From NCBI GenBank assembly GCA_963674755.2, contig CAXXVS010000001.1, positions 1,088,001 through 1,152,000 of the forward strand: a stretch of DNA of 64,000 nucleotides. Reading direction: 5' to 3'. The translations under genes were made by a program, and so were the position numbers. Shown here in pieces: positions 16,564 to 39,368 of this stretch. The DNA comes from Desulfobacterales bacterium (GTDB taxonomy: Bacteria > Desulfobacterota > Desulfobacteria > Desulfobacterales > UBA5852). Position 1 is the first letter of the stretch. Each line of letters starts with the position of its first letter. The notes under the pieces were generated by a model that worked only from the letters and a program-made list of their open reading frames with translations, was not told where the DNA came from and ran no database searches.

Positions 16564-16575
16564 GCGATCTCCTTA

Positions 16576-16815: not shown

Positions 16816-16830
16816 CGTGAAGCTTTGGTT

Positions 16831-17841
16831 CTAATTACCCGACGTGATCAGTTCCTTCAACGTACTGATATAGGCCTTCCCGTCCAGCCCCTTGGCGCTG
16901 ACCGTGGCGGCATAGTCGTCCATGATGGGTTGCACGGCCTGCTCCCAGCGGGCTGTTTCGGCAGCCGAGAGCTCCAGGATCTGGTTGCCCAGGCTTAAGG
17001 TGTATTCGCGGCCGGCGGCATCGTCCTTGTCCCATTGTTCGCCGTGTACGTCAATCCATTCCCGGCTCACCTCTTCGAATATCTTTTGGACATCCGCCGG
17101 CAGCTTGGCCCATTTGCCGCGGTTCATTACCACATACATGGCCGTGGTGTAGCCGATGGCGCGGCAATCGGTGGTATCTTTGATGACTTCGGCCTGTTTC
17201 CAGCCCTTGAGGGTTTCCATGGGCGCGAAGGTGCCCTCCACGACGCCCTTCTGCAGGGCTTCGTAGGCGGCATTCTGGGGCATGGCCACCGGCACGCCGC
17301 CCAGGGCTTCCACGATGCGGGCGCTCAGTCCGGTGGAGCGGATCTTGAGGCCTTTCATATCTTCCATGGAGCGGACGGGCTTTTGGGTGTGCAGCAGGCC
17401 GGGCCCATGGCCGTGCAGGTAGAGCACTTTGACATCGTTCAACTCGGCGGGCCTGAATTTCTGATAATAGGCGTTGGCGGCGCGGGTGGCCACTTTGCCG
17501 CTGGGGTAGCCCAGGGGCAGGTCGAGGGCTTCCATGACCGGGAAACGTCCCCGGGTGTAGGCAAACACCGACATGCCGATGTCGGAGATGCCGTTGACCA
17601 CGCCGTCATAGCACTGCTGGGGTTTGGTCAGGGTGCCGGTGGGAAAGATTTGAATGGCGACCTGGCCGTTGGTGCGTTTCTCGATTTCCTTGGCCCAGCT
17701 CATGGCGGCCTTGCACTGGCCGTGGGAGGGGGGGAAGAAGATGCTGTAGGTCAGATTGGTGGTCTGGGCGGCGGCCGGCCCGGTCAGGACCATACCGACG
17801 ACGATGGCCAGAATCGTGAGAGATGCGAATTGTTTTTTCAT
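16831..17841 (-). CDS. dctP: TRAP transporter substrate-binding protein
   Basis: Signal peptide; MKGLKIRST (carboxylate-binding Arg); [20 protein letters not shown]. Confidence 0.92.
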
Positions 17842-18109: not shown

Positions 18110-18338
18110 TGAACCCATCCTTGCGTGATGGGCGATTCTGATCAATGGGGGCGTTCTTGTCAAGCCTTTTCTACGCGCCCAGGGAGAGGGCCGGGGCTGG
18201 TGGACGTGAGGCCAAGTCTTCCTTGACTTAGCGGCCGGTTGCGATAGAAATGGGATGCTGTCAGGCCGATGGCCGGCCCTGACCGCTGCCGTTGTTCCAG
18301 TTTATCATCTGTGTACACATACGGATTGGGGAACGATC

Positions 18339-21133: not shown

Positions 21134-21173
21134 CGGCCGCCCCATGACGATGGTCACAAGAAGGAATCGGTCC

Positions 21174-22856
21174 ATGCCTATCCACGGCAAAGACGAAGAT
21201 CTTCCGGCCATTCTGGCGCGTTGTTTGGATACCCTGCAGTCCGCATGGGACGATGCGCGGGCGCCCGCCGCGCGGGAGGCGCTGATCCGGGATCTCCGTC
21301 TGGCGGTCACCCGGGCGGAGCGGGCCCTGGCGGAGCGGGAACGCATCGATGAAGAGCGCACCCGCCTGGCCACGGCCGTGGACCAGGCCAGCGAGCTGAT
21401 CTTTATCACGGATACCGAAGGCCTCATCCAATACGTCAATCCTTCCTTTGAAAAAGTCACGGGCTATACCCGGGCGGAAGTCCTGGGCCGCAAACCCTCC
21501 CTGCTCAGAAGCGGTAAACACGACCCGGCCTTTTATGCCGGCATGTGGTCCACCATCGCACGCGGCGCGGTCTGGAACGGCCGGATCGTCAATCGCAAGA
21601 AAGACGGGACGCTCTACGAGGAAGAGGCCACCATCACCCCCATCCGGGACCACACCGGCCGTATCGTCAGCTATGTGGCCGTCAAGCGGGACGTCACCCG
21701 GGAGATTACCCTGAAAAAGCAGCTGCGCCAGGCCCAGAAGATGGAAGCCATCGGCACACTGGCCGGGGGGATCGCCCACGACTTCAACAACATCCTGGCG
21801 GCCATCATCGGCTACACCGAACTGGTCCGCATGGATCTGGCGGAAGACAGCGCCCTCATGGCGAACGTCAACAAGGTTCTCGGCGCCAGCTACCGGGCCC
21901 GGGATCTGGTGGCCCAGATTCTGGCCTTCAGCCGCCAGACCGAACAGGAATTGAAACCGGTCAGCATCAGCGCCATCGTCAAGGAGGCCCTCAAACTGCT
22001 GCGGGCCTCCCTGCCGGTCACCATTGAAATCCGACAGCGGATTTGTATGGAGCCCGCCACCATTCTGGCCGATGCCACCCAGATCCATCAGGTGCTCATG
22101 AATATCTGCACCAATGCCGGTCATGCCATGCGGTTGACCGGCGGGATTCTCGACGTCTATCTGGGCGAGCCCCGGGAAGAATTCGAACCACCGCTGCCCC
22201 TGCAGCACCTGGCTGCGGATCATTATCTGTGCCTTGCCATCCGGGATACCGGACACGGCATGTCCCCCGAGGTGCTGGAACGGATTTTCGACCCCTATTT
22301 CACCACCAAGAAAAAGGAAGAGGGGACCGGACTCGGCCTGGCCGTGGTGCACGGCATCGTCACCAGCCACAACGGCCATATCACCGTCGAGAGTACGCCG
22401 GGGCAAGGCACGGTTTTCAAGATCTACTTTCCGTTTATTCCGGCCAAGGTTTTCGATCACAAAAAAACCATGGGATCGCGGTTGCCCGGAGGGACGGAGC
22501 GCGTGCTGCTCATCGACGACGAGGTCGATATCGTGCATGTGAACCGCCTGATGCTCGAACGTCTGGGCTATACCGTGTCCGCTTACAGCGACAGCCACAA
22601 GGCGGTGGCCGCTTTCGAAAGCGATCCGCAAAGCATCGACCTGCTGATCACGGACATGACCATGCCGGGGCTGACCGGCGACCTGGTGGTGCGGGCCGTC
22701 CACGCCCGGCGTCCGGATCTGCCCATCATCATGTGTACGGGCTTCAGCGAAATTATCACGGCGGAGAAGGCCCAGGCCCTGGGGGTGCGCAAGTTGATGA
22801 TGAAACCCCTGTTGGTGGGGGAGTTGGCGCGGTCGATTCGGGAGTTGCTGGATTGA
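21174..22856 (+). CDS. cytoplasmic PAS-domain hybrid histidine kinase/response regulator
   Basis: PAS ([12 protein letters not shown]), H-box [11 protein letters not shown] boxes ([14 protein letters not shown]), receiver (DDE, TDMTMP, KP). Confidence 0.93.
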
Positions 22857-22979: not shown

Positions 22980-23972
22980 TCAGGGTCGGGCGCGGTTGAG
23001 GCCCACGAAGGCCCCGCCGTTGCGTTCGCACATGGCACGCATGAGGGTGGCGAAGCGCAGGCCGGTGATGCCACGGGGGTCGCGGAGCACGGTGGGGAAG
23101 CCCACGGCGTGGATGCGTACCCGGCGCTGGCCGCCCGGGCCGGCGTGGTTGAGCCGGTCCACGGTGTTGATGGCAGCCTGCATGTCCTTGCCGGAATACT
23201 CGTCCCCGAAGACATAGAGGCTGATCTTCTTCCGGGGATCGTAGAAGGCGCGGATGGCCATGGCGATGCCCTCCACCGGGCTGCTGTTGCTGAAGGGCTG
23301 CCAGGTGGCCAGGGTTTCCAGGATCACCCGCCGGCGGCGGGCCGTGTCCGGAATCCAACGACCGCGGTATTGCGGGAACATATAGTCCCCCATGTCATTC
23401 ATGATCTGGATGCCTTTCACCTTGGGGTAGACGTTGAGCGTTTCGCGCAGTTTCTGCTGCACGCTGCCCCAGGCGCCCCGCTGCATGCTGCCGGAGGTGT
23501 CGATGATGAAAATGATGTACTCGCTGTCCACCGGGATGCCTCCCACCGAAGCGCTGGGGGGAGGCGGCCGGCGGGCGGCGAGGCGCTTCATCTCCGCGGT
23601 GAGGTCCTGCAGGGTGCGGGCCATGCGGCCTTCGATGATGTTCTGCACCTCGGCGTTGTCGCGGGAGGCGGCAAATTCCCCTTTCAGGGAAGACAAATCC
23701 CCCTGCAACCGGGCCAGGTGTTCCTGGGCTGCGGTGAGCTGCCGGCGCTTGGCCTCGAGCTCCCGCTCCAGCACGAGGGATTCGCCTCGGATATCGTGTT
23801 TTTCCTCCTCCAGCCGAACGATGGCCGCATCCAGGTCGGTGCGGGTCTGTTCGATCACCAGGGGCTCGCCGAACTTGGAGAGCACGAAAAGCAGGATGAT
23901 GGCCCCGAAGGCGCAGCAGATGCAGTCCAGGAAGGAGAGGCTGAAGACGTGGATTTCGCGGCGGGTGCGCAT
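22980..23972 (-). CDS. TM-anchored coiled-coil vWA-domain protein 2 (ExbD/TolR-like N-terminus)
   Basis: FSLSFLDCICCAFGAIILLF TM with Asp; heptad coiled coil; MIDAS IIDTSGSM ... FGDE. Confidence 0.8.
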   Translation of the reverse strand: MRTRREIHVFSLSFLDCICCAFGAIILLFVLSKFGEPLVIEQTRTDLDAAIVRLEEEKHDIRGESLVLERELEAKRRQLTAAQEHLARLQGDLSSLKGEFAASRDNAEVQNIIEGRMARTLQDLTAEMKRLAARRPPPPSASVGGIPVDSEYIIFIIDTSGSMQRGAWGSVQQKLRETLNVYPKVKGIQIMNDMGDYMFPQYRGRWIPDTARRRRVILETLATWQPFSNSSPVEGIAMAIRAFYDPRKKISLYVFGDEYSGKDMQAAINTVDRLNHAGPGGQRRVRIHAVGFPTVLRDPRGITGLRFATLMRAMCERNGGAFVGLNRARP

Positions 23973-23974
23973 GA

Positions 23975-25063
23975 TCAGGGCCAGTCCGGTGAGGGGCAGA
24001 AGTAGGCGCCCCGGGTAAGGACGGCCAGCTGCCAGTAGGCGCTGGCCGCCGCCGGATCCCCTTCCAGGGGGAAGAGGATGACGTTGACCGGAATGTCGGG
24101 CAGCATCTTGACCGCCTCGTTGAACAGGCTGAGGCGTTTTTCGCCGGAGACTTTCTTGAACCAGGGCGTGCCACTGCCCATGGTGGGCAGGCCGTCCGTG
24201 ATCAGGAAGACGTTTTCGGGCATTGGCCGCAGCTTGCGCAGTTCCGCAAAGGCGTTGGCCAGGCTGGTGCTCTTCTCCGGCACCAGTTGGTAGAGACGGT
24301 TGACCGCGTCGTTGAGCTGCTTGCTATCGGCGGTTTTAAGCCAGCGGCCGTCGGTGCCCGGCACCAGAAAACGCGCGGTCTCGTTGAAGACGACGATCTG
24401 GTAGCGGCTTCCCGGCGGGAACTGGGCTGTCAGCCAGTCCACCGTGGCCAGCGCCTTGCGCCACTTGGGGGCCTGGCGCTGCTGGTCTTTGGCCAGGTTG
24501 CGGCGGCGGACGATGCCCACGATGGAATGGTCCAGCATGCTGGCCGAGGCATCCAGCAGAATCAGAATATGGCCGCCGTCCACCCGCAGATCGGTGAGAT
24601 ACTGGCGGCGGCCCTCCCCGGCAAAGGCGCGGACCTTGGACCCGTAGTCGTCTTCCTCCTGGCTGCCGGCTTTGAGCCGTTTGACGTCTTCTTCCATGGA
24701 ACGCAGGTCGGCCTTGAGTTGGTCGGCATGTTCCTTCCGGGCCAGGGTCTGGTCCTGGTAGTGGGCGATTTCTTCCTGGCGCGCCTCGAGGACGGGCACG
24801 ATCTGGCGGGTGGTGCCGCGGATGTCGACGATTTCCTGCTCGGCCGCTTCCAGGGCGTTGCGCAGGTCGGCCATGCGCTTGCGCCCATCCAGAACCTCGC
24901 GCTCCAGCCGGTCCACTTCACTGCTCAGGTCCTGGGTGATCTGGTCGCGGCGGACGGCCGAACGGGCGTTGACGATGACGAACAGCAGAATGACGGCCCC
25001 CAGACCGCAGCAGATGCAGTCGATGAAGGAGAGGCTGAAGACGTTAAGCGGCCGGCGTTTCAT
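23975..25063 (-). CDS. TM-anchored coiled-coil vWA-domain protein 1 (ExbD/TolR-like N-terminus)
   Basis: FSLSFIDCICCGLGAVILLF TM; coiled coil; MIDAS LLDASASM ... ITDGLP. Confidence 0.8.
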   Translation of the reverse strand: MKRRPLNVFSLSFIDCICCGLGAVILLFVIVNARSAVRRDQITQDLSSEVDRLEREVLDGRKRMADLRNALEAAEQEIVDIRGTTRQIVPVLEARQEEIAHYQDQTLARKEHADQLKADLRSMEEDVKRLKAGSQEEDDYGSKVRAFAGEGRRQYLTDLRVDGGHILILLDASASMLDHSIVGIVRRRNLAKDQQRQAPKWRKALATVDWLTAQFPPGSRYQIVVFNETARFLVPGTDGRWLKTADSKQLNDAVNRLYQLVPEKSTSLANAFAELRKLRPMPENVFLITDGLPTMGSGTPWFKKVSGEKRLSLFNEAVKMLPDIPVNVILFPLEGDPAAASAYWQLAVLTRGAYFCPSPDWP

Positions 25064-26462
25064 CGTTTTCCCGGCAGGCAATCACCTGCAGCGTTTCGCC
25101 CGGGGTTCCCACCCGGATGGTCTGCCCCACGGTCAATTCGGTTTCGCCGTCCACCTTGTCACCGTCCACGTAGGTGCCGTAGGTGCTGGTATCGCTGAGC
25201 ACCAGGCGATCCCCCCGGCGGGTCACGATGCAGTGGCGGCGGGAGACCCCGGCGGTTTTGCCCTGGATAAGGATGCCGGCGCAGCCGGCCGGGATGTCGC
25301 GGCCGATGATCAGCGGACGCTCTGACAGGGGATACCCCCGGCTGCAATACAGGAGATGGGTGGCGGCCGGCTCCTGGTCCGTGGCATGCCCGGGGGAGGG
25401 GACGGCCGCGGGCGGCCTTTTGCCCTTGCGCGGTCGGCGGTTGAGCAAGGGCACACCCTGGCCGGCCTCCCCGGGTGGGAAGGCCTTTGCGAAGGCAAGC
25501 ACCCCTGACGCGGCGGCCCCTTGGGCCAACGGCACCACCCGGGCGCCGACGGCGGCCGCCAGGCGGCGGCTAAAGCCGGGCAGACAAGAGGCGCGGTGGC
25601 TCACGAGAATCGTTTCCAGGGGGTGCCCATGGAAAAAATCCTGCTGCAAGGCACCGATCTCACGCTGGAGGGCCTCCATCAAGGGGTGCAGGGCCTGTTC
25701 CACCACCTCCCGGGTCAACTGAATGCGGTGCACGGCGGCGGGCGTGTCCATCGCCACGGCGACCTCTTCGGAGGTTTCCAGGGCGGCCAGCAGGCCCGGC
25801 AGTTGGTCGTAGAGGGCCTGCTCGGTGTCGGCGGCATGGAAAGGATCGAAACGGGTGTGGCGCACGAATTCGTCGGCCATGGCCTGCATCCAGGCCTTCC
25901 GCAGGGCTTCCAGGCCCAGGCCTGCGATGGCCGTCTTCTCCGGATGGACGGCCTCCCGGCGCAAGTTCAGCACGGTCAGGAGGGTTTGGTGCAAGCCGAG
26001 GTCGAGGTGCAGCAGGATTTCGGCCGGGGCATTTGGCGGGAGGGCCGCCAGGGACAGGGGCACGAAGCCCTGGACGGGCATCGCTAGCGCGTTCATGATG
26101 CCCGCCAGCAGTCCCAGCTGGTGTTCGCTGAAGCTATCCGGTACCGCCACCAGAAGCGCCTCACGGGCCGGGGCCAGTTGCTGCCAGATATGGGACAGGT
26201 GGGCGTGGGCCAGGTCGGCCTGGGTCCAGCCGGCATAGGCCGGATCCTGCAGGGGATCACTGGCCAATTCACTCCAGAAATGGCGGTTGATCTGACGCGG
26301 CAGCCGCCGGCAGCGCTTTTCAGCAGCGAGGCCCACCCGGAGGCGGCCTTCCTCGATGAGGGCCACCCCGGGGCTGGCCGTCGCTCCCCGCTCGATCTCC
26401 AACAAATCCCCTTCGGGGCCGGCCGCCAGGAGCCCGGCATCGTTGAGTTCCAGCCCGATCAT
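25044..26462 (-). CDS. actin/Hsp70-like fold protein with C-terminal FHA domain
   Basis: N-terminal IGLELND and LHLDLG resemble ASKHA phosphate motifs; FHA IIGR...GVSRRH...STYGTYVDG; ATGA overlap with upstream gene. Confidence 0.7.
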   Translation of the reverse strand: MIGLELNDAGLLAAGPEGDLLEIERGATASPGVALIEEGRLRVGLAAEKRCRRLPRQINRHFWSELASDPLQDPAYAGWTQADLAHAHLSHIWQQLAPAREALLVAVPDSFSEHQLGLLAGIMNALAMPVQGFVPLSLAALPPNAPAEILLHLDLGLHQTLLTVLNLRREAVHPEKTAIAGLGLEALRKAWMQAMADEFVRHTRFDPFHAADTEQALYDQLPGLLAALETSEEVAVAMDTPAAVHRIQLTREVVEQALHPLMEALQREIGALQQDFFHGHPLETILVSHRASCLPGFSRRLAAAVGARVVPLAQGAAASGVLAFAKAFPPGEAGQGVPLLNRRPRKGKRPPAAVPSPGHATDQEPAATHLLYCSRGYPLSERPLIIGRDIPAGCAGILIQGKTAGVSRRHCIVTRRGDRLVLSDTSTYGTYVDGDKVDGETELTVGQTIRVGTPGETLQVIACRENDETPAA

Positions 26463-27283
26463 GCGGCGTCCTCCTCCCCGCGGCGGGTATGCAGCCGCCG
26501 GGTGAGCCGCTCCTCGCAATAGGCTTCGGTATCCAAAATGTAGCGCTCCTGCAGCAGTTGCAGCTGGTAGAGGAGAAACATGAGCACGATGCTGATGAGC
26601 AGGGCCACCAGGGTGGAGTTGAAGGCCACCCCCAGGCTGCGGGTGACTTCCAGGATATCCCCCTGGACGGCCTTGTGCGCATTGCCCAGGGCCTGGCCGA
26701 TGCCGCGTACCGTGCCGATAAAGCCCACAGACGGGATGGCCCAGGCGATGTAGCGGATCATGGCCAGTTCGGCGTCCAGCCGTTCCCCTTCCGTGTCGCA
26801 GGAGGCGTGCATGGCATTGGCCACGTCCTGGATGTTGCGGGTGGACCCGAAACGGTGCAGGGCCGCCAGCAGGGTCCGGGGCAGGAGTGATTCCCGCTGG
26901 GCCGGCGGCAGGGCTTCGATGCGGCGGGAAAAGGCGAGGGCGTCCTCCGGCAGGATGCGGACCCCCTCGGCCAGGGGAATCAGGTCGAGATTGAGCAGGC
27001 CGCGATGCTTTAAGGTCGCAACGCTTTTATAGCCCATGATGGCCAGGGCCCAGAACATGAGGATGAAACAGGATTCCTGTTCGTAGTCCTTGATCATGAC
27101 AAACAAGGATTGTTCGCTGGTGGTTGTGCCTTCGGCGGCCTGGGCCGTCTCCTGGGCGTCTTGGAAGGCGGCCGCATTAGGCCGGATGACGGCCACATAG
27201 GCGGCATGCACCAGGATAACGATCACGATCAGGGCGAAGATCTGGTAGATGAATTCCAGCGAAACGGGGAGATTTTGTTTCAT
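26459..27283 (-). CDS. MotA/TolQ/ExbB proton channel family protein
   Basis: AIPSVGFIGTVRGIGQAL and LGVAFNSTLVAL TM motifs. Confidence 0.88.
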   Translation of the reverse strand: MKQNLPVSLEFIYQIFALIVIVILVHAAYVAVIRPNAAAFQDAQETAQAAEGTTTSEQSLFVMIKDYEQESCFILMFWALAIMGYKSVATLKHRGLLNLDLIPLAEGVRILPEDALAFSRRIEALPPAQRESLLPRTLLAALHRFGSTRNIQDVANAMHASCDTEGERLDAELAMIRYIAWAIPSVGFIGTVRGIGQALGNAHKAVQGDILEVTRSLGVAFNSTLVALLISIVLMFLLYQLQLLQERYILDTEAYCEERLTRRLHTRRGEEDAA

Positions 27284-27448
27284 TAAGCCATACCTATTGT
27301 TGAAGTAAGCTTCTGGATGCCTTGCGCTTGAACGTTTTCGAAACCCTGGTCAGAATGATTTCTTGCTCTCTAACGCGGTCGTGGTTCTTCGCAGCCCATG
27401 CAAGGCCTAATCCTTTCATCAAGCAACAGTATCAAAATATACCTAAAC

Positions 27449-27594
27449 AGTATCTGTTCGGAGAGGGTAGATTTCGGTTCCGGCCAAGGCCGCAGGGAAT
27501 TGGAAACCGGAGGCGTAGCTGGGCTACGGCGAGGATTTCCAATGACCGAGAACGCCAGCCGGGGCCGAAAGATGCCCCCTCCGGACGGATACTA
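27449..27594. repeat. palindromic repeat family A, copy 5 (full length, reverse orientation)
   Basis: Reverse complement reads TAGTATCCGTCCGGAGGGGGCATCTTTCGGCCCC...GGCGTTCTC...CGTAGCCCAGCTACG...GGAACCGAAATCTACCCTCTCCGAACAGATACT. Confidence 0.85.
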
Positions 27595-27897
27595 GATGTC
27601 TGCCGGGAAGTCCACGGCCTTATCCACCCGGATTTCTTCGGACGGTTCAAAGGGTTTCAGGTTGTCCTTTTGTTTGCGATAGGCGCTGCCCTGCTCTGGG
27701 GGGGGCTGCGCCATGTCGGTTGCGGTGCCCTTGGGCGGTGCGGCCTTGTCGGCACGCTGTTCCGTCTGTTGCGGGACCTCCCCGGCGGGTGCGGTCTGGG
27801 CCAAAACCAGCGGCGGCGGCCCGCTCAGCAGCAGGAGGATCATCACACCAGCGCCACAGGCCAGGCGTCGGCAGCTGAAAAAGCGTTTGATCGTCAT
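27592..27897 (-). CDS. small exported protein (101 aa), Pro-rich linker, C-terminal FEPSEEIRVDKAVDFPADI motif
   Basis: ATGA overlap with upstream stop; RBS GGGAG; signal peptide ending VLA-Q. Confidence 0.7.
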   Translation of the reverse strand: MTIKRFFSCRRLACGAGVMILLLLSGPPPLVLAQTAPAGEVPQQTEQRADKAAPPKGTATDMAQPPPEQGSAYRKQKDNLKPFEPSEEIRVDKAVDFPADI

Positions 27898-30056
27898 GGG
27901 GTACTCCCGGCCGCTTCGGCATAGCGGCAGATGCGGAAGCCCAGGTCCGGACGGGCTTCGTCCTGGTAATCCCGGTAGGCGGCCCGCAGGGTGCGGATGG
28001 AGGCGTCCTGCCAGCTGCTGCCCCGGATGACGTGGTGCTGGCCCTGGGCCGGGCCGCTGGGATCGGTGGCCACCAGACCGGGCTGGGCCGGATAGATGCT
28101 GTAAAAATCGTGGCACCATTCGGCCACGTTGCCCCCCAGGTCGTACAGGCCGTCGGGGTTGGGGGCAAAGGATCCCACCGGGGATGCGGTGGGAAAGGTA
28201 TCGTCGTATTTTTCCACCACCAGGTTCAACAGACGCGCGGCGCTGGCATCGGCGATATTGACGCTTTGGGCCGGGGGCGGGTAGCCCGTGCCCCAGGGGT
28301 ATTTCCAGCCCCGGGCGGCGGCCCCGTAACGGGCGCAAAATTCCCACTCGGCCTCGGTGGGCAGCCGGTAGCCGTTGCCCATGGGATCCGTTGGCCTGAG
28401 TTTGCCGTCGGTTTCTTTGTACACCGGTTTGAGGCCTTCCTGGCGGCTCAGCCAGTTGCAGAAACGGGCGGCCTGCTCCCAGGTGACCTGCGCCACCGGC
28501 TGGTCATCCAGATTCAGCGGGGCACCCTTGAACGAGCCGGAATCGTGGGCCGGATCAAAGGCCCGGAATTCCCGGTTGCTGACTTCCTTGAGGCCCATGA
28601 AGAACGGCCGTGTCAACAGGATCAGCCGCAGGGTCTCGTTGGCGCGCCGGCCCTGCTCGCGCCGGGAGGCCCCCATTTGAAAGCGGGCCGGGGCGATCAG
28701 TTTCAGGCGGTACCCGTCGGCCGCCCGGATGATCCCCGGGACCTGGGTGGCGTTGGTCCGTTGGAGGCCGGCCTTTAGTTCGAGGGGGAACCCCGGCCGG
28801 GGCGTGACCTGGTGAATGACGGGGGTAAACCCTTCCTTGCGGATCTCGATGCGGTGGGGCACGGCCAGCAGGGTAAGCTGTTCCGGGACCGGGCCCTGGT
28901 CGCGGCCGTCCACCCGGAGAGTGGCCCCCGGCGGTGCGCCGCGCAGATAGAGGATGCCCCGGCGCGGCGCCAGCTCCACCTGGAGGGCGGTTTCCTCGCC
29001 CGACCGCAAGGTGACCTCCCGGGCGGCAGGGGCATAGCCGGCCTTGGAGAGCTGAACCTTGTGGGGTTGGTCCGGCGGCAGATCGATGGTCAGGGGGGTT
29101 TGGCCGTGATACCGGGTGCCCACCATGACGCTGGCGCCCTCCGGCTGTGAATTGACGACCAGACGGCCGTCCAGGGGCGCCAGGACCGCGGTTTCCAGGG
29201 TGAGGGGCGATCCGGCCGTGACCGGCACGGTTCGGGTCCAGGGCTTGTAGCCCGGGTGCTGCAATTCCAGCTGACGCGGGCCGGCCGCCATGGCCAGGGT
29301 GGCCGGGGTGAGGCCCTGGCGGACGCCATCCACCTGGATGACGGCCTCCGGAGGGTCCGAGCTTACGGTAACCCGGGCATAATCGGGCGTCAGCGCATAG
29401 GTCAGGCCCTGCCGGTGTTCCATGCCCTCCACCGTCAGGGGGGTTTCCAGCGGGCGGTAGAGATCGGCTTCGATGCGCAGCTGGTGTTCTCCGGCGGGGA
29501 CCGGCCGATCCTTCAGTGGCGTGACGCCCGCGTCGCTTCCGTCGATGAAAACCCGGGCCCGTTCGATCGCGAGATCGGGCTGGCCCGCCTCGTGGGCGCT
29601 GATGTCCAGGCGGCCCGGCAACTTCTCCAGGGTCAGGGTGAGGGTCTGGCGGTCCTGGTTTGCCACCACCACATCGGTTGCCAGCGGTGTATACCCGGTT
29701 TTGACGGCGCGGATGTGATAGGTACCGGGGCGCAGCAGATAATAGCCGCGCAGCTGCGGGGTCAGCCAGGCGCCCTGGAGATCCACCCGGTCGGGCTCCG
29801 GCTGGATATCGAGCCGCAGCTGGCGGGCCGTGAAGACGAACCATAGACTGTAGAGGAGCACCGCCAGGAGGGCGGCGGCCAGCAGGCTGACAGACAGTCG
29901 GTAGGATGAAGCGCGAACAGGCGGCGCCTGGTGGGCCGGCTCGAAGGGGAAGGGCTCGATCCTCCGGGGCGCGCTTAGGTCCGGCGGCGTGGTGCGGCGG
30001 ACGCTTTTAGCCGCATCCTGTGGAGGTGCGGCAGGATCTATATCTTTTCCGTGCAT
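27894..30056 (-). CDS. membrane-anchored PEGA-repeat + FGE/SUMF1 domain protein
   Basis: N-terminal TM; repeated V.S.P..A...VDG...G.TP PEGA motifs; FGE-sulfatase motifs FQMG, RLPTEAEWE, GLYDLGGNVAEW, GFR. Confidence 0.88.
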   Translation of the reverse strand: MHGKDIDPAAPPQDAAKSVRRTTPPDLSAPRRIEPFPFEPAHQAPPVRASSYRLSVSLLAAALLAVLLYSLWFVFTARQLRLDIQPEPDRVDLQGAWLTPQLRGYYLLRPGTYHIRAVKTGYTPLATDVVVANQDRQTLTLTLEKLPGRLDISAHEAGQPDLAIERARVFIDGSDAGVTPLKDRPVPAGEHQLRIEADLYRPLETPLTVEGMEHRQGLTYALTPDYARVTVSSDPPEAVIQVDGVRQGLTPATLAMAAGPRQLELQHPGYKPWTRTVPVTAGSPLTLETAVLAPLDGRLVVNSQPEGASVMVGTRYHGQTPLTIDLPPDQPHKVQLSKAGYAPAAREVTLRSGEETALQVELAPRRGILYLRGAPPGATLRVDGRDQGPVPEQLTLLAVPHRIEIRKEGFTPVIHQVTPRPGFPLELKAGLQRTNATQVPGIIRAADGYRLKLIAPARFQMGASRREQGRRANETLRLILLTRPFFMGLKEVSNREFRAFDPAHDSGSFKGAPLNLDDQPVAQVTWEQAARFCNWLSRQEGLKPVYKETDGKLRPTDPMGNGYRLPTEAEWEFCARYGAAARGWKYPWGTGYPPPAQSVNIADASAARLLNLVVEKYDDTFPTASPVGSFAPNPDGLYDLGGNVAEWCHDFYSIYPAQPGLVATDPSGPAQGQHHVIRGSSWQDASIRTLRAAYRDYQDEARPDLGFRICRYAEAAGSTP

Positions 30057-32431
30057 TGAATCACGACCTGGGTTGGCCCCTGACCGGGGCGGATGCGGAG
30101 CGTATGGCGCACGTCCTTGTAGCCGTCCCGGGCTCCAGCAATGGTGTAGGTGCCCGGGCGCAGTTCCAGCTGGCGGGTCGCAAACTGCCCCAACCGGCCG
30201 ATCCGATAGACGGTCACCACGGTCTGTTCATCGGATTTGAGGGTGACCACGACCGGGGTGCGGGCATTCTGCACCATCCGCTCCAGGGATGCAATCTGGG
30301 ATTGCAGGTGCGGCCCCCGGGGATCCAGGCGCTTCAGCTCGGTCAGCAGGTCCTCGGCCTCGGCCAGATAGGCGTCATGTCCCAGGTCGTCCGGATGGTC
30401 CATGTAGTAGGTCACCCGTTTTTCAAGGCGCAGCCGTTCCCCGGTCCGAACCACTCCCTGGGCGGCAAAGCGGACAGCCGGATCGATGCCCTGCACCTGG
30501 CGGTAGTATGCCAGGGCCTGGTCCCAGGCCTCATCGGACTCGGCCTTGCCGGCCAGCGTTCTTAGACGGGCGATGCGGTCCTCGCGGGCGGCGGTCTCGA
30601 TCTGGGTGAGGGCGTCGCGGGCTTCCGGGGCCTGTGGGTTAAAGGTCAGGGCCTTGTCGATTTCCCGCCGGGCCTCGTCATAGGCTTTACGGCCCAGCGC
30701 TGTCAGGCCGGCCGACATGTGGCGCTGGAACTGGTCGGCGGCAATCTGGTCCCGGACGCGGGGCACGGCCGTCCGGGCCGGCTGCCAGTCCGGATCCAGC
30801 GCCAGGGCGGCTTCGTAATCCGTCAGGGCCAGGGCCAGGCGGCCGGCGGTTTCCTGGGCCGCACCGGATGCCATCAGGGCGGTCACTTCCGCCACCTTGG
30901 CGGCCCGTGCGAGTCCCTCGCGGGCCACGCTGTTCTGAGGATCGATTTTAAGGGCCAGTTCGAAACTCCGTTTTGATTCGGCGCCGTCCCCCGCTTCCAG
31001 GGCCGCCCGGCCTTCCGCCAGGAGTCGGACCAGGGCTTCCGGGGCCCGGGCCGCAAGTTGACGCGCATCCCGCGCGGCAGTGGCGTAGTGCTCGGCTGCC
31101 GCGGCGAAGTCGGCCGCCAGGAAGGCTGCATCGCCGGCGTCGGCCTGTGCGCTGAGGGCGGCAAAGGCGTCCGCCCCCCATTGGGGTCCCCCGATGGCTT
31201 CAAGGTCGGTTTGGGCCTGACGCCAGTCGGCCAGCGCCTGTTCCGCTGTGTTCTCATCGACCGCCGACGGGGCGGAGGGGGCTACGGCCGCCGGCCGCGA
31301 TGGGGGCGGGGCGGGTTTTTCAGGGGTCGTGAGGGCGGCGGGTTTGGGCACCCATGGATGGCTTGCCAGATAGTGGAGCAGCCATCCACCCCCGGCCAGG
31401 AGCATGAGCCCCATCAGACCGAGGAAAACAGGGGCGCGCCACCCGGAACGTTTCGTCCCGGCGGGGTGGTCTTCAGGCCCTGTAAACGGCTGGGGGGCGA
31501 TGACGGTGGCCGCGGACCCGGAGGCCACTTCACGCCGTTCCGCTGTTTCGCCAGACGGAGGGATGGTTCGGCGGTCATGACGGGCCAGGAGCTGGTCCAG
31601 GGCGGCGGCCACGGCGGCCATGTCCCCGGGACGGTCTTCCCGCCGTTCGGCCAGGGTGCCGGCCAGCCATTCGATCCACTCGGCCGGTGCGCCGTTCCGG
31701 TCCTGGAGAGACCGCCGCAGGGCCGCGCGGCGCGCCTCGGGTTCAGGGGTGTCGTTCGCTGCGGAAGGCTCCAGGGCTTCCAGGAGGAGGACGCCGAAAC
31801 TATAGATGTCGTCGCCGGGGTGGGGCGGCCGGCCGGCGCGCTGCTGGGGGCTCATGCAGAACCGGGAACCGCCGGAATAGCGGATGGCGGGGTCCGACCC
31901 CATCTGCGCGACCCCGGCAATGCCGAAATCGGTCCAGTACGGGCGGGTCTGCCGGTCCAGCAGCAGGTTGCCGGCCTTGACGTCCCGATGGACCAGCCCC
32001 TTTTCATGAACATAGTCGAGGGCCCGGGCGGCCGGCACGAGGGGGCGCAGCCGCTCGATCCAGGGGCGCCCGGGCGCCTGGTTCCAGCGTTCGAAGCTGG
32101 GGCCGTCCACCCAGGCCATGGAGATAAAGACCGTGTCGCCGTCCTGGTGGAAGTCATAGACCTGCACGATATGCGGGTGATGGAGGCCGCGGGCCAGGCG
32201 GCATTCATTGCGGAGGAATTCCACCTGGGCCGGGACGGCGGCCAGCTCCGGGTGCAGCAGTTTGAGGGCGATGTCCAGACCGAGGGCCCGGTCCCGGGCT
32301 TGCCAGACTTCACCCATACCACCCTGCCCCAGGGGGTGGGACAGCTCGAAGCGCTCGATCAGCACCTGGCCGCGGCAGGCCTGCCATGATGCGCCGCGGG
32401 GCATCTCGTTGGTACGTCCGTCTTCTGTCAT
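30038..32431 (-). CDS. membrane Hanks-type Ser/Thr protein kinase with periplasmic TPR-like region
   Basis: LGQGGMGEV, ALK, HRDVKAGN, DFG, DIYSFG; TM helix, Pro-rich linker, TPR-like helices, C-terminal beta domain. Confidence 0.88.
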   Translation of the reverse strand: MTEDGRTNEMPRGASWQACRGQVLIERFELSHPLGQGGMGEVWQARDRALGLDIALKLLHPELAAVPAQVEFLRNECRLARGLHHPHIVQVYDFHQDGDTVFISMAWVDGPSFERWNQAPGRPWIERLRPLVPAARALDYVHEKGLVHRDVKAGNLLLDRQTRPYWTDFGIAGVAQMGSDPAIRYSGGSRFCMSPQQRAGRPPHPGDDIYSFGVLLLEALEPSAANDTPEPEARRAALRRSLQDRNGAPAEWIEWLAGTLAERREDRPGDMAAVAAALDQLLARHDRRTIPPSGETAERREVASGSAATVIAPQPFTGPEDHPAGTKRSGWRAPVFLGLMGLMLLAGGGWLLHYLASHPWVPKPAALTTPEKPAPPPSRPAAVAPSAPSAVDENTAEQALADWRQAQTDLEAIGGPQWGADAFAALSAQADAGDAAFLAADFAAAAEHYATAARDARQLAARAPEALVRLLAEGRAALEAGDGAESKRSFELALKIDPQNSVAREGLARAAKVAEVTALMASGAAQETAGRLALALTDYEAALALDPDWQPARTAVPRVRDQIAADQFQRHMSAGLTALGRKAYDEARREIDKALTFNPQAPEARDALTQIETAAREDRIARLRTLAGKAESDEAWDQALAYYRQVQGIDPAVRFAAQGVVRTGERLRLEKRVTYYMDHPDDLGHDAYLAEAEDLLTELKRLDPRGPHLQSQIASLERMVQNARTPVVVTLKSDEQTVVTVYRIGRLGQFATRQLELRPGTYTIAGARDGYKDVRHTLRIRPGQGPTQVVIQCTEKI

Positions 32432-32463
32432 GTCCCCCAAAGCCCCCCGTAAGGGGACATTCC

Positions 32464-33735
32464 TCAGCCGCCGATCGTTTCCGCCGGGATCGGGTCCGGG
32501 GCCACAAGGCCCGTTTCCCGCAGATAGATTTCCTTGAGCAGCCGGCGCCACTGGCGGTATTGTTCCTGGGCGCTGCCCGAGAGCTCGTGGATTTCGCCCT
32601 CGACGTCCATCAGAACCGGCGCCATGTCGGCGCCGAAAGATTCGCTGAGCTCCTGAATGGCGGCGGAATGCATTTCCGCCTGCTTGGAGATGTTCATCCC
32701 GCTCATGAAGACCTTGCCGCCGGAGATCACCAACAGCCCCTCCAGGATATTGGAACTGCTGCTGCCGCCGTAGATTTCCAGGGCGATGGCCGCGGCCACC
32801 AGCAGGGCGCCGCCGACCTTGTGCAGCAGGGCGGAATTTTCCACTTCTTCACGAGCCAGGCGTTCGGTCAGGTCCAGTTTGCGCCAGTTCTCGTAGGGCG
32901 GCCACATGCTGGCGTAAAAACCGTCGTAGTACTGGTTGAGCGTGTCGATGAACATGTAGTCCCGCTCGCGGATGGTCATGAGCCGCTGCATCAGGGGATC
33001 GTTGTCGGCCGGGAGACGTTTGGGCCGCAGCTGGCCCTCCTCGTTTTCCGCCAGGTAGTCGCCGTAGGCCTCGGGCGCGAAGTCCCGGGCGAATTTCAGC
33101 TGGGCGACCCGGCGAATCGTCAGGATTTCCTCGGGCGCCAGGCTGTCGCGATAGACCGCCATCTCGTTGGCGATAGTGTTGTAGAGATCCTGGAAAGCGT
33201 CCTTCTGCCAGGGCACGTTGTCCCGATAATTCTCCCCCGTGGCCTCGGCCTCGTACACCTCCTCGAACCACCGGCGTCCCGTGGCATCGGCCACGCTGAT
33301 TTTGAGCACCAGGGTCTGGCCGTTGGATTCGAGAATCTCCCCGTTGACCACCACGTCGTGGGTCTCACCGGCTTCGGGCAGCACCCGCACGGCTCCCCAC
33401 TGGGCGCTTTGCTGGAGGGTGTTGCGCAGGTGGCAGGGGATGAAATGATCCTCGGACTGGCGCACCTTGTTGTCGGTACCTTTGTCCTGGGCCTCCTCCT
33501 CGGTCATTTTGGGGCTGCTGAAGACCACCAGGCCCACATCGAGCAGTTCGGTTTCCGGGATTTCCGTCTGGGCGATCTGGATATCGGCCGGTGCAACCTT
33601 GCGGGCGTTATAAGAGGCGCAGCCGCTGGTGAGCAGGGAGAGGGCGTAGAGGCCCACGACGAAGCCCGCCGTCCAACGGCGCCGCCGTCCAAGCGGCCCG
33701 CGCGGCCGTCGCCAACCGATGCGGCCCCACATCAT
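32464..33735 (-). CDS. hypothetical lipoprotein
   Basis: Basic N-region and lipobox LTSGC; TGATG overlap with upstream gene; glycine-zipper-like hydrophobic stretch near C-terminus. Confidence 0.75.
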   Translation of the reverse strand: MMWGRIGWRRPRGPLGRRRRWTAGFVVGLYALSLLTSGCASYNARKVAPADIQIAQTEIPETELLDVGLVVFSSPKMTEEEAQDKGTDNKVRQSEDHFIPCHLRNTLQQSAQWGAVRVLPEAGETHDVVVNGEILESNGQTLVLKISVADATGRRWFEEVYEAEATGENYRDNVPWQKDAFQDLYNTIANEMAVYRDSLAPEEILTIRRVAQLKFARDFAPEAYGDYLAENEEGQLRPKRLPADNDPLMQRLMTIRERDYMFIDTLNQYYDGFYASMWPPYENWRKLDLTERLAREEVENSALLHKVGGALLVAAAIALEIYGGSSSSNILEGLLVISGGKVFMSGMNISKQAEMHSAAIQELSESFGADMAPVLMDVEGEIHELSGSAQEQYRQWRRLLKEIYLRETGLVAPDPIPAETIGG

Positions 33736-34649
33736 CAGAGCCCCTTTTTGTAGTCGTAATATTCCTTCCAAAGCTTTTCTTTCAGCGCGGGATCGGTTTC
33801 CTTCTCGGCGGCTTCGCGCAGCTGCCGGGCCACGATGTCGTCATCCTGGGCGGCCTCGGCTTGCGCGCCGTCTCCGGCCGGGGCCTGGCCCCCCTGGCCC
33901 GGGGCGGGTTTGACGCGGGCTTTGTCCCGGTAGCGCCCTCCGCCGGTTTCCTGGGGGCCGCCTTCCTGGGCTGCCGCTTCGTCGTTATTCCCCTCCAGGC
34001 CTTCCGTGCCGCCTTCCCCGGAAGTGTTGCCGGTTTCCTCCCCGCCGCCGGAGGAGGAGGTGCCGCTTTCCAGGCCGGTCTCGCTTCCTTCGCTGCCCTC
34101 AGCGCCGCCTCCCTCGTCTTCCCTGAGGCTGCGGGCGGCCTGGGCCGCTTCCTGGGCGAGCTGCTTCATTTTCAGTTCGGACTGGACGCGGGCCACTTCG
34201 CTTTCGGTCAGGAGCATGTCGTCGAACGCGGCGATGGACTGATCCAGCTCCCGCTGGAGGGCCCGCAGCTTATCGAGTTCCCGGTCTTCCGGGATGTCGA
34301 GATCGGGCGGGGGCGGGTCGGGTGCGGCCGGGTGGACGCCGGCCGCCGATGCGGGCCGCGGGCGGGCTTTTTCCAACTGGAGGACCTGTTTCCGTTTTTC
34401 CTCGGTAAGCTGCCGGACCCGGTCCAGATAGGTTTCATAGAGTGCGATGCGCTCCGGGGAGGTTTCGCCGGACGCGCGGTAGCGGTTGAGTTCGTCCAAA
34501 ATCCGCTGTTCGGTGGCCCTGCCGATTTCAAGCGCCCGCCGCGCCTCGGTCAGACGTTCCGCCGGGGAGAGGGCCAACCCGGGCGGGCACAGCAGCAGCC
34601 CGAGGGCCACCAGGACCACCGCGGTGATGACGGGGCGCGGCGCTGTCAT
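33735..34649 (-). CDS. exported coiled-coil protein with acidic Gly-rich linker and C-terminal DDDIVARQLREAA..E.DP.LKEKLW.EY motif
   Basis: RBS GGAGAGG; signal peptide; low-complexity G/E/S region. Confidence 0.75.
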   Translation of the reverse strand: MTAPRPVITAVVLVALGLLLCPPGLALSPAERLTEARRALEIGRATEQRILDELNRYRASGETSPERIALYETYLDRVRQLTEEKRKQVLQLEKARPRPASAAGVHPAAPDPPPPDLDIPEDRELDKLRALQRELDQSIAAFDDMLLTESEVARVQSELKMKQLAQEAAQAARSLREDEGGGAEGSEGSETGLESGTSSSGGGEETGNTSGEGGTEGLEGNNDEAAAQEGGPQETGGGRYRDKARVKPAPGQGGQAPAGDGAQAEAAQDDDIVARQLREAAEKETDPALKEKLWKEYYDYKKGL

Positions 34650-34939: not shown

Positions 34940-37666
34940 TTATTGCTTGTCCCGCAGAGCCGCGTGGGCGGCGGCCAGCCGGGCCACCGGCACCCGGTAG
35001 GGGGAGCAGGAGACGTAGTCGAGCCCCAGGTGGTGGCATTGGATGATGGAATCCGGGTCGCCGCCGTGCTCGCCGCAGATGCCGCATTCCAGATCCGGAT
35101 TGACGCTGCGTCCTTTCCGGATGGCAATGGCCATCAATTCCCCCACCCCGTCTTCGTCGATGGTGGCAAAGGGGTTGTTGGGCAGGATCTTGTTTTCCAT
35201 GTAGTCCACCAGGAAGCCGGTTTCGGCGTCGTCCCGGGAGAGGCCGAAGGTGGTCTGGGTCAGGTCGTTGGTGCCGAAGGAGAAGAACCCGGCATAGCCC
35301 GCGATCTGGTCGGCCGTGAGGGCCGCCCGGGGGATTTCGATCATCGTGCCGAACTTGTAGGCCACCTCCATGCCCTGTTCGTCCATCACCTTGCGGGCCT
35401 CCTCTTCAAGGATGTCGCGCTGGTATTTCAGCTCGTTGACGTGGCTGATGAGCGGAATCATGATTTCGGGCTGAACGTCGACGCCTTCCCGGGTAACCTC
35501 GCAGGCCGCCTCGAAGACGGCCCGCACCTGCATGGTGGTCAACTCGGGCACCAGCATGCCCAGGCGCACCCCGCGCAGTCCCAGCATGGGGTTGTCCTCG
35601 CGCAGGCTTTCCACCCGTTTGAGGATGCGGGTCTTCTTCTGGTACTCGTCCAGGAGCCCGTCGATGGCTTCCAGATCGGCGGCGTGCTGCAGGCGGATTT
35701 TCAGATCGGAGAGCTCTTTGAGCAGGACGACATAGTTGGGCAGAAATTCATGCAGCGGGGGGTCGATCAGCCGGATGATGACCGGCAGGCCTTCCATGGC
35801 GCGGAACAGGCCGGCAAAATCCTCCCGCTGGAAGGGCAGCAGGGCCCCCAGGGCTTCCCGCCGTTCCACGGGCAGGTCCGCCATGATCATTTTCTGGATA
35901 TGGGGCAGCCGGTCGGTTTCGAAGAACATGTGCTCGGTGCGGCACAGCCCGATGCCTTCGGCGCCGTATTCCCGGGCCCGGAGGGCATCCTCGGGATAGT
36001 CGGCGTTGGTGCGGACCCCCAGGTGGCGGTACTGATCGGCCCAGGACAAGAGCTTGATCAGCCAGGGGTCCTTGATGTGGGGGGCCGTGGTGGTCAATTG
36101 CCCGCTGTAGAGCTCACCGATGGTGCCGTCGATGGAGATCCAGTCGCCTTCATGAATGGTGTGCTCGCCGATCAGGATGCGCCGTTTGGCCATATCGATC
36201 TTGAGCTGGGAGACGCCCACCACGGCGGGTTTGCCGAACTGGCGGGCCACCAGGGCGGCGTGGCTGGTGCGCCCCCCCCGGCTGGTGAGAATGCCCTTGG
36301 CAGCCAGCATGCCGTGCACGTCGTCGGGTTTGGTTTCCGGCCGCACCATGATGACGGCACGGCCCTCGTCCTTGGCCCAGTGCTCCGCCAGATCGGCTTC
36401 CAGGGCCACCACGCCCACCGCCGCCCCGGGGGAGACGTTGAGCCCGCGGGCCAGCATCTGGCCCATTTCACGGGCCGCCTGGACCGACTCCAGGCTGAAC
36501 TGGGGATGGAGGAAGAAATCCACCTGATCCGGGCTTACCCGCAGCACGGCTTCCTCCCGGGAGATCAGGCCCTCTTCGGCCATTTCCACGGCAATGCGCA
36601 CGGCGGCCTGGGCGGTGCGCTTCCCGTCGCGGGTCTGGAGCATCCAGAGGCGGCCTTCTTCAATGGTGAATTCCATGTCCTGCATCTCGCGGTAGTGCTT
36701 TTCCAGCCGTTCGGCGATATCGATGAGCTCCTGGTAGGCCTGCGGCATTTCGTCTTTCAGTTGGGAGATGTCGCGCGTCATGCGGATGCCGGCCACCACG
36801 TCCTCTCCCTGGGCGTTGGTCAGGTAGTCGCCCTCGACGGCCTTTTCTCCGGTGGATCCGTTGCGCGTCATGGCCACGCCGGTGGCGCTGGTCTCCCCCA
36901 GGTTGCCGAAGACCATGGTGACGATGTTGACCGCGGTGCCCAGGTCGTGGGCGATACCGGCGGCATTGCGGTAATCGATGGCGCGTTTGCCGTTCCAGCT
37001 CTTGAACACGGCTTCGGTGGCCAGGCGCAGCTGGTTGTAAGGATCCTGGGGGAATTCCATTTTGGCGTGCCGGTAAAAAATGGACTTGAAGTCTTCGACG
37101 ACGCCCCGCAGGGTTTCGGGCGGCAGTTCGGCGTCGTTTTCCACCTGGTTTTGCTGGCGGGCTTTGGCCAGCACCTCTTCGAAAAAGTCGTCCGAAATCT
37201 CCATGACCACGCTGCCGAACATCTGAACCAGGCGACGGTAGGCGTCGTAGACGAAGCGCGGGTCGTTGGTGAGCGCGATCATGCCCTCGATCGTCTCGTC
37301 GTTCAGGCCGATATTGAGCACGGTGTCCATCATGCCGGGCATGGAAAATTTGGCGCCGCTGCGGCAGGAGACCAGCAACGGCCGGGCCGGGTCTCCGAAG
37401 ACTTTGCCGCTGGTCTTTTCCACGGCCTTTAAGGCGTTCAGCAGCTGGTCCCACATGCCCTCGGGAAAGATGTTGCCTGCTTCGAGATAGGCATTGCAGG
37501 CCTCGGTGGTGATGGTAAACCCCGGGGGCACGGGCATGCCGATGCGGGCCATCTCGGCCAGGTTGGCGCCCTTGCCGCCCAGGAGCCCGCGAACCGCTTC
37601 CCAGTCGCCGCCGGCTTTGGCCTGTATTTCTTCCACCTCGTCAAACCCATAGACCCATTTTGTCAT
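34940..37666 (-). CDS. ppdK: pyruvate, phosphate dikinase
   Basis: LGGKGANL, SMPGMMDT, GGRTSHAA (phospho-His), GLCRTEHMF, FSFGTNDLTQ, GICGEHGG. Confidence 0.96.
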   Translation of the reverse strand: MTKWVYGFDEVEEIQAKAGGDWEAVRGLLGGKGANLAEMARIGMPVPPGFTITTEACNAYLEAGNIFPEGMWDQLLNALKAVEKTSGKVFGDPARPLLVSCRSGAKFSMPGMMDTVLNIGLNDETIEGMIALTNDPRFVYDAYRRLVQMFGSVVMEISDDFFEEVLAKARQQNQVENDAELPPETLRGVVEDFKSIFYRHAKMEFPQDPYNQLRLATEAVFKSWNGKRAIDYRNAAGIAHDLGTAVNIVTMVFGNLGETSATGVAMTRNGSTGEKAVEGDYLTNAQGEDVVAGIRMTRDISQLKDEMPQAYQELIDIAERLEKHYREMQDMEFTIEEGRLWMLQTRDGKRTAQAAVRIAVEMAEEGLISREEAVLRVSPDQVDFFLHPQFSLESVQAAREMGQMLARGLNVSPGAAVGVVALEADLAEHWAKDEGRAVIMVRPETKPDDVHGMLAAKGILTSRGGRTSHAALVARQFGKPAVVGVSQLKIDMAKRRILIGEHTIHEGDWISIDGTIGELYSGQLTTTAPHIKDPWLIKLLSWADQYRHLGVRTNADYPEDALRAREYGAEGIGLCRTEHMFFETDRLPHIQKMIMADLPVERREALGALLPFQREDFAGLFRAMEGLPVIIRLIDPPLHEFLPNYVVLLKELSDLKIRLQHAADLEAIDGLLDEYQKKTRILKRVESLREDNPMLGLRGVRLGMLVPELTTMQVRAVFEAACEVTREGVDVQPEIMIPLISHVNELKYQRDILEEEARKVMDEQGMEVAYKFGTMIEIPRAALTADQIAGYAGFFSFGTNDLTQTTFGLSRDDAETGFLVDYMENKILPNNPFATIDEDGVGELMAIAIRKGRSVNPDLECGICGEHGGDPDSIIQCHHLGLDYVSCSPYRVPVARLAAAHAALRDKQ

Positions 37667-37982
37667 TTTCGACCCCTTTCGCAATGAAGTGCAATATCCC
37701 GCTGCAGGCGGCAAATTGTCTGCGCCCGCGGCTCGATGCAATATAACGTTGGATAAGCCCGGAGGATGATCAGAAGCCGTCCAGCAAACTGAACGGCGCG
37801 TGGTATACCGAGTGTGAGCACCTGTCAGCGACGCTGCTAAAATTATATGTCATGGCACGAAAACCTGTCAATCACTCTGACGATCTGATTGGGGTGGCCG
37901 GGGTTAAGCCGTCTAAATGGCTGAAATAGCACAAAGTTATAATGAATAAGGAGCGTAACATTCCCACCGGATGGTGCTACGT

Positions 37983-39347: not shown

Positions 39348-39368
39348 CTCTTTTCCTTTTCTGTCTGC

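Follow-up and report, generated by a model that had tools for sequence, protein, structure and literature searches.

We describe a nine-gene operon (g1 to g9) in a 64,000-nt stretch of the genome of a Desulfobacterales bacterium (assembly GCA_963674755.2, contig CAXXVS010000001.1, positions 1,088,001 to 1,152,000; hereafter the window, in whose own numbering all coordinates are given). The system is real, conserved and mechanistically unusual. The sequences support a TolQ-type pentamer with a heterodimeric, aspartate-bearing axle and functional-looking von Willebrand factor A (vWA) heads that is inherited together with five envelope genes, and we consider this motor architecture likely. New here are the ring-type fold and helical hairpin of the g2 lipoprotein, the near-universal FPxDI peptide encoded by g5, a histidine-bearing helix in the motor subunit g6 and a cysteine-less formylglycine-generating enzyme (FGE) domain in g4. 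The motor core has already been predicted in print (Williams-Jones et al., Mol Biol Evol 2025; PMC12204202), which limits the surprise, and the six partner genes and the full machine appear to be undescribed.

A preliminary description of the locus had listed nine co-oriented genes with mostly overlapping or abutting ends, and our data agree. All nine minus-strand open reading frames (ORFs) are present, from the first ATG at 34649 to the last stop at 22980, with a gene-like third-position guanine-cytosine (GC) content of 0.76-0.87. Five of the eight junctions overlap (by 1, 19, 4, 4 and 20 nt) and the remaining gaps measure 2, 32 and 308 nt. Each gene is single-copy in the genome, the generic kinase and FGE domains excepted, and a promoter and terminator scan gave results at chance level. 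The domains recognised earlier (kinase, TPR, PEGA, FGE, MotA/ExbB, FHA and vWA) are confirmed by Pfam.

The predicted motor is built from g6, g8 and g9. g6 (26459..27283, minus strand, as for all genes below) encodes a TolQ/ExbB-family pentamer subunit that matches the models PF01618 (MotA/ExbB, E 2e-14) and TIGR02796 (E 7e-7). Its pore residues Thr191 and Thr224 and its Pro184 are kept in at least 90% of sequences (n=113) and align with TolQ Thr145, Thr178 and Pro138, in an alignment that is weak (E 0.19) beside the strong family matches. g8 (23975..25063) and g9 (22980..23972) encode the paralogous axle proteins vWA1 and vWA2 (hhalign probability 99.8), each consisting of a trans-pore helix (TPH), a coiled coil, about 100 residues long in g8, and a vWA domain with a metal-ion-dependent adhesion site (MIDAS), DxSxS in g8 and DTSGS in g9. 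Pfam recognises the vWA domain at E 1e-8 in g8 and at just 0.019 in g9; the DxSxS motif is kept in both, and each head conserves the serines and aspartates of its MIDAS. The two proteins have in common a FSLSFLD-type membrane helix whose aspartate, Asp15 in g8 (n=96) and Asp16 in g9 (n=92), is kept in at least 90% of sequences. This is a membrane aspartate of the ExbD/TolR type, which supports the earlier labelling of the two vWA proteins as 'ExbD' subunits.

The trans-pore helix consensus of g8 and g9 contains no histidine, and hence no SHLS histidine. The g3 and g4 helices were considered as SHLS-type TonB equivalents and rejected, as they are not conserved. g6 has an extra N-terminal helix that carries invariant His26 and Tyr29. 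g6 Trp78 aligns with the conserved Trp in the first transmembrane helix of the TolQ of the same genome (a weak match, with hhalign probability 27 and one template). It is on this Trp of the pentamer subunit that TonB His20 and TolA His22 dock in E. coli (PMC12215075), and the His helix of g6 may fill this docking site.

Conservation of the operon was assessed in two samples. The ExbB-anchored set comprises the best 80 of at least 579 relatives from an ExbB alignment scan and is biased toward close relatives; therefore, a second sample was anchored on g9 (vWA2). In both, loci with room are those whose contig extends far enough, by thresholds that we set. The detected genes stand in the order of the window in 80/80 ExbB-anchored loci, and among those with room each gene is present in 94-99% (g1 45/48, g2 49/52, g3 60/61, g4 63/64, g5 72/75, g7 72/73, g8 64/65, g9 49/50), two of the three g5 misses carrying the gene on inspection. 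In the class of a Cellvibrionales genome (the gammaproteobacterial class sample), 39 of the 400 genomes searched have a g9 match, one of them an unpublished genome that was counted only (G342). From 31 of the 39 genomes 32 loci were taken, eight genomes being omitted; three loci from the phylum of the window were added and five were cut by contig ends, leaving 30 with room. Of these, 27 contain g2, g3, g4, g6, g8 and g9 all together and 15 contain g7. In these samples, the gene-neighbourhood check proposed in the preliminary description comes out in favour of synteny. Searched as a single protein, g9 was found in 4 of 301 genomes of the window's phylum; it was also matched in 10 of 12 other genomes of the window's genus and had no match among plasmids.

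The nearest relatives are Desulfobacterales genomes. In a quick tree of g8 only, midpoint-rooted, subject to long-branch warnings and not readable for the direction of transfer, the 19 rows of Desulfobacterales type group as a single clade amid gammaproteobacterial rows and the three other loci of the window's phylum fall at two other positions, hinting at several transfers. The loci without g7 form two groups in this tree, one a deep clade with ten members and the other a set of three nested loci. In three compact loci (L094, L095 and L096), g3 is short and has lost its usual membrane segment, the PEGA repeats are fewer, g7 is short and divergent, and the C-terminus of g1 contains two cysteines.

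Three partner genes, g1, g2 and g5, encode exported products that have no family in Pfam or NCBIfam scans; g2 also lacks a sequence match in the PDB, and the Atlas matches for g1 and g2 are unnamed clusters. g2 (32464..33735) is a lipoprotein whose lipidation site, Cys39, was read in the sequence and is lipobox-like in 65 of 75 relatives, and the Ala at position +2 suggests sorting to the outer membrane. Its AlphaFold2 model (pLDDT 82) combines an N-terminal domain of the FlgT/PqiC/PelC/TolB-N/CsgG fold with a long helical hairpin ending in a hydrophobic, glycine-containing tip. The top Foldseek matches of the N-domain are envelope lipoprotein domains, several of them from rings (FlgT in the LPHT ring, the PelC dodecamer, the curli complex), with VIA Z scores of 9.9-8.2 to FlgT, XCC0632, PelC, TolB, CsgG and PqiC and root-mean-square deviations of 2.7-5.5 over 101-177 residues. 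g1 (33735..34649) encodes a signal peptide, a helical segment, a low-complexity linker and a conserved helical C-terminal motif, DDIVARQLRE...LWxEY (33735-33850), which we take to resemble the DP...K...EY C-terminal motif of vWA-TPR proteins from MoxR/Bat operons.

The third exported product, encoded by g5 (27592..27897), is a predicted secreted peptide with a signal peptide, a variable linker and the conserved C-terminus (FxPSE...)FPxDI. In 98/102 loci, an ORF whose product ends in [FLMIW]Px[DN]I lies at most 700 nt after g4, and in three misses it is farther away or fused. Such endings are rare, occurring in 113 of 29,958 ORFs across all loci, the g5 ORFs included. In the deep clade, g5 mostly has 37-50 residues, that is, a signal peptide and about 15-20 residues beyond a cleavage site read by eye. 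The gene stays behind g4, not with the ExbB gene, in L113 and in L098, where g6 has been relocated downstream. In one genome (G467) with one operon copy of each deep clade (L093 and L100), the L093 peptide ends in NI, not DI; covariation of this Asp-to-Asn change with the MIDAS was considered and rejected, as the L093 MIDAS is intact. The idea that the TPR of g3 holds the peptide as a carboxylate clamp was also rejected, since only structural Ala, Trp and Asp positions are conserved.

The remaining partners, g3, g4 and g7, combine membrane-anchored and cytoplasmic modules. g3 (30038..32431) consists of an optional N-terminal Ser/Thr kinase (Pfam E 1.6e-26), a transmembrane helix, a proline linker, TPRs and a C-terminal PEGA-like domain (weak Pfam E 0.02) that is the most conserved part of the protein and had been missed in the preliminary description. 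g4 (27894..30056) has a cytoplasmic tail, a transmembrane helix, five PEGA stretches (E 4e-56) and an FGE fold (E 7e-39). The catalytic Cys pair of formylglycine-generating enzyme is absent, the aligned region of g4 containing no Cys at all, and among 102 sequences examined, the 63 with a recognisable anchor motif all lack Cys in the corresponding stretch. Several arginines of the FGE domain are conserved and form a patch. g7 (25044..26462), an optional gene, encodes a cytoplasmic protein described earlier as actin-like, which is correct; more exactly, it has the Hsp70 nucleotide-binding fold (Foldseek E 1.7e-16 to 5e-15 and target TM 0.72-0.80, with several isolated nucleotide-binding-domain entries). 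Its glycine loops are degenerate, one being replaced by Leu157 (93%) and His158 (97%) and the adenosine Gly pair by Ser-His, when compared with what we take to be the Hsp70 motif letters. Some nucleotide binding may remain, because the acidic residues Glu5, Asp8 and Asp154 are kept (87-98%). The optional FHA domain of g7 (Pfam E 4e-11 in the window) sits where the substrate-binding domain of Hsp70 would follow. A motif in the g4 tail, [IVL]x[PA]xx[FYILW], is present in 56/61 loci with g7 and in 1/14 without it, in a count that left out L094-L096 and loci without a located helix.

The model that we favour, although we hold it tentatively and at somewhat less than even confidence, is a rotary motor of 5:2 stoichiometry that is driven by ions, has its own transducer and exports or gates through an outer-membrane lipoprotein ring. 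In its first step, which we regard as likely from the sequences, five g6 subunits would surround the two Asp helices of the g8/g9 heterodimer, and ion flow would turn this axle as in ExbBD and TolQR. The axle coiled coil, about 15 nm by its length, would then carry two metal-dependent vWA heads across the periplasm, and TonB or TolA would be unneeded because the axle itself brings the heads across; the His-bearing helix of g6 may sit at the Trp site where TonB and TolA dock. In a third step, g3 and g4 would act as membrane-anchored struts that brace the machine, g2 would oligomerise into a ring at the outer membrane, where its hydrophobic hairpins may together make up a helical channel, and the FPxDI peptide of g5 and the C-terminal helix of g1 would be the grip or the cargo linking the moving heads to the scaffold, with the grip binding either a MIDAS or, on the non-catalytic FGE domain, the Arg patch. 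Optionally, the degenerate Hsp70-fold g7 would bind the cytoplasmic tails of g3 and g4, and the kinase and FHA would add a phospho-switch where present. The weakest step is the output, and export or gating, as opposed to tethering, uptake or adhesion, is a choice that we make with less than even confidence. A bolder version is TonB-free rotary export, in which the vWA heads grip the dedicated FPxDI peptide and drive an alpha-helical channel of a PelC/CsgG-fold lipoprotein ring, the TonB docking site being permanently filled by the His helix of the pentamer; we find this version doubtful. If true, the diderm machines run by 5:2 motors would comprise a fourth functional class in addition to Ton, Tol and Mot, and the system would be a proteobacterial analogue of the type IX secretion system (T9SS) made from unrelated motor parts.

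Several observations weigh against the rotary export model. The fold of g2 is also found in monomeric proteins (TolB-N, LptE), its VIA Z scores of 8-10 barely exceed typical background, and the tip of its hairpin is without a confident model (pLDDT <50). The placement of g6 Trp78 rests on the weak TolQ alignment, and its partner Ser is replaced by Ile. The link between the g4 tail motif and g7 was defined post hoc and draws on two independent g7-less groups only. Some loci are incomplete: within 19 kb, L108 has no more than the three core genes, L113 lacks g6, L097 lacks g2, g5 and g6 in the locus, and L030 and L057 are split. No conserved cargo beyond g1 and g5 and no beta-barrel gene was found in the locus flanks. 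Finally, the nine-gene complex is predicted from sequence, and PMC12204202 reports no phenotype.

A first alternative is that the same motor has a Tol-like output, tethering or remodelling the outer membrane or shifting g2 against the cell wall, with no export. The TolB N-domain fold of g2 and the flanks free of conserved cargo or barrel genes fit this possibility, as does the presence of the operon in genomes of just 1.6-1.8 Mb (G704, G583 and G353), as a housekeeping function might be. However, the nine proteins contain no peptidoglycan-binding domain of the OmpA/Pal type, the genome has a separate TolQ-TolR-TolA locus (besides separate Ton and Mot loci), and the distribution is patchy, as the 4/301 genomes of the phylum illustrate. 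On balance, we consider a Tol-like output unlikely.

The vWA axle could also pull, via an adaptor, on outer-membrane transporters encoded elsewhere, in a Ton-like uptake process. To judge by their record titles, the carriers are largely marine or sediment bacteria, and a gene for a secreted TPR-TonB_C protein (TonB_C E 6e-6 and 4e-4 in the two members scanned) lies co-oriented just upstream of g1 in 18/54 loci with room (L045, L048, L050, L054, L060, L064, L065, L072, L073, L075, L076, L080, L083, L084, L099, L100, L104 and L113). In those loci, this gene favours an uptake reading, which counts against rotary export there. However, the gene is absent in 35/54 loci, the genome of the window yields generic-domain cross-matches only, the conserved flanking families include no receptor, and the Ton locus of this genome is a separate one. 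Overall, uptake seems quite unlikely.

We find it improbable, too, that the motor drives an adhesin exposed at the cell surface, in the manner of Agl-Glt or T9SS gliding. A heterodimeric axle and TPR, FHA and vWA parts do recall Agl-Glt as described in PMC11761067, and the FGE fold of g4 is common to GldK/PorK. However, the vWA domains here are anchored in the inner membrane, unlike the outer-membrane lipoprotein CglB (PMC9946355), and neither the nine genes nor the conserved flanks encode a barrel, a TonB_C protein or a large adhesin.

A different view makes the system an envelope sensor, in which the FGE or vWA domains read a peptide or mechanical input and pass it to the kinase and FHA in the manner of TagR-PpkA-Fha1, the channel serving for signalling. 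In the window, the Gly loop, Lys, HRD and DFG motifs of the g3 kinase are all intact, and kinase-bearing loci always have an FHA (12/12 in the ExbB-anchored set and 2/2 in the vWA-anchored set). In addition, a double zinc ribbon kinase and a PP2C phosphatase are encoded upstream in five loci (L058:94-2066, L051, L055, L059 and L107), where g3 is kinase-bearing in each case. However, the kinase domain is present in only 12/51 complete g3 genes of the ExbB-anchored set and in 2/30 vWA-anchored loci with room, and of the 44 ExbB-anchored loci in which kinase and FHA are jointly scorable, 12 have both, 12 have the FHA only, none has the kinase only and 20 have neither. Furthermore, the Arg that follows the first Gly of the FHA is retained in just 16% of 146 homologues. 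We therefore regard a sensor as very unlikely. The same counts revise the preliminary description: a self-contained, ion-motor-based, conserved envelope system stands, whereas phosphorylation control as a general trait does not, since the kinase, the FHA (46/69 complete g7 genes of the ExbB-anchored set) and g7 itself, absent in two clades, occur in only part of the loci, which makes phospho-control an add-on. A phospho-switch is plausible as a lineage-specific feature, because the window kinase motifs are intact and kinase loci always carry an FHA, and phospho-control is probably live in this window. That there is no single machine, and a three-gene motor merely travels with unrelated envelope genes, finds some encouragement in the core-only or split loci L108, L057 and L030, but it is extremely unlikely given that the genes overlap and that loci on either side of the deepest split in the tree agree in gene order and content.

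The surroundings of the operon vary. A co-oriented pyruvate phosphate dikinase gene (34940-37741) and a convergent PAS-histidine kinase-receiver gene (21144-22856) flank it, neither being conserved as a neighbour. The 308-nt gap between g5 and g6 (27284..27591) carries a dispersed repeat of 110-140 bp in a single copy, which has 106 blastn matches genome-wide, the listed copies being 67-96% identical, and is not part of the system. Farther out lie what we take to be a TRAP transporter (14761-17841), a nucleotide-sugar dehydrogenase (18255-19649) and a cytochrome bd oxidase pair (38223-40931), together with a small, presumably HicB-like ORF (41808-42155) that opens a low-GC stretch (40-46 kb, GC 0.49-0.53). 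In 23/76 loci, a pair of lipoprotein genes without a Pfam match directly follows g9 (L050:13705-14373, L109:3970-4623 and relatives; one member is displaced in L110), with an M48 peptidase gene next in eight loci; the pair was not found in the genome of the window. No TonB, ExbD or type VI secretion system (T6SS) sheath gene is adjacent to the operon. The genome's two ExbD (PF02472) and two TonB_C matches each lie beside other ExbB/TolQ genes, the PF02472 matches on other contigs, and the sheath protein VipB (PF05943) has 0 matches in this 97.4% complete genome, with a positive E. coli control. These results bear out the earlier statement that no TonB/TolA or T6SS structural gene adjoins the locus.

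About one in ten genomes of the gammaproteobacterial class sample, and some sulfate-reducer lineages, thus carry a complete, though so far predicted, envelope machine powered by ions. With this system, one can ask by experiment whether rotation of an axle that itself spans the periplasm lets a 5:2 motor do work when TonB and TolA are absent, and it offers experimental handles in the two axle aspartates, the two MIDAS sites, a synthesisable peptide of about 15-20 residues and a ring-fold lipoprotein.

Known systems have parts in common with this operon to different degrees, and on the features compared it belongs to none of Ton, Tol-Pal, Agl-Glt, T6SS and T9SS, as had been proposed. Anti-phage defence was considered and rejected, as PADLOC matched only g3 among the nine proteins, and that only to generic kinases. 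Nor does the operon belong with MotAB or Zorya, its axle having vWA rather than OmpA-like wall-binding domains. The TagR-PpkA-Fha1 module of the T6SS unites a membrane Ser/Thr kinase, an FHA protein and a non-catalytic FGE fold; here, the kinase and FHA are optional and no sheath was found in the genome. The T9SS GldLM-GldKN complex has a periplasm-spanning axle without TonB, an FGE-fold structural subunit and an outer-membrane-associated ring. The FGE fold of g4 is homologous to GldK/PorK (118 bits, below the GldK cut-off of 350), but the motor belongs to a different family, with no match to GldL or GldM among the nine proteins; g4 is anchored by a transmembrane helix, not a lipoprotein, its FGE domain tips an inner-membrane PEGA stalk, and there is no translocon barrel.

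Agl-Glt, as described in PMC11761067, resembles the window system in its TolQ-type pentamer, heterodimeric axle and TPR, FHA and vWA parts; it differs in the TolR-fold AglQ/AglS axle, in force transmission via the TonB_C proteins GltG and GltJ and in placing the vWA on an outer-membrane adhesin. A link between PEGA and Agl-Glt, drawn earlier, found no confirmation in the main text of that paper, where the word has 0 occurrences. With ExbBD-TonB and TolQR-TolA, as described in PMC12215075, the operon has in common the pentamer family, the pore Thr and Pro, the axle Asp and the conserved transmembrane Trp. However, it is without an ExbD/TolR periplasmic domain (no PF02472 or PF03544 match among the nine proteins), TonB/TolA, receptor or Pal, and its pentamer has the extra His helix.

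The closest description is that of the TPH-vWA motors, the second family of PMC12204202, which reports heterologous TPH-vWA pairs beside tolQ homologues without tolR or exbD, having a trans-pore Asp, a Thr ring and a 5:2 complex in AF3 models, with no phenotypes. The window genes have five sequence-level features of that account, namely an adjacent tolQ-like gene, a membrane-tethered heterologous vWA pair, the trans-pore Asp, the pore threonines and no syntenic tolR or exbD, and on these features the window core fits this predicted motor family. The earlier claim that the locus matches no named system thus stands for the full nine-gene set, for which a literature search covering few subscription papers found no description, and not for the motor-plus-vWA core. 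PEGA, kinase and Hsp70 have 0 occurrences in the main text of PMC12204202, as have PEGA and FGE in the text of its supplement, although its Figure 4c and model files may show neighbours. To the core that this work predicted computationally, the window system adds six partner genes that its text does not appear to describe, with the FPxDI peptide and the ring-fold lipoprotein among the parts of the system.

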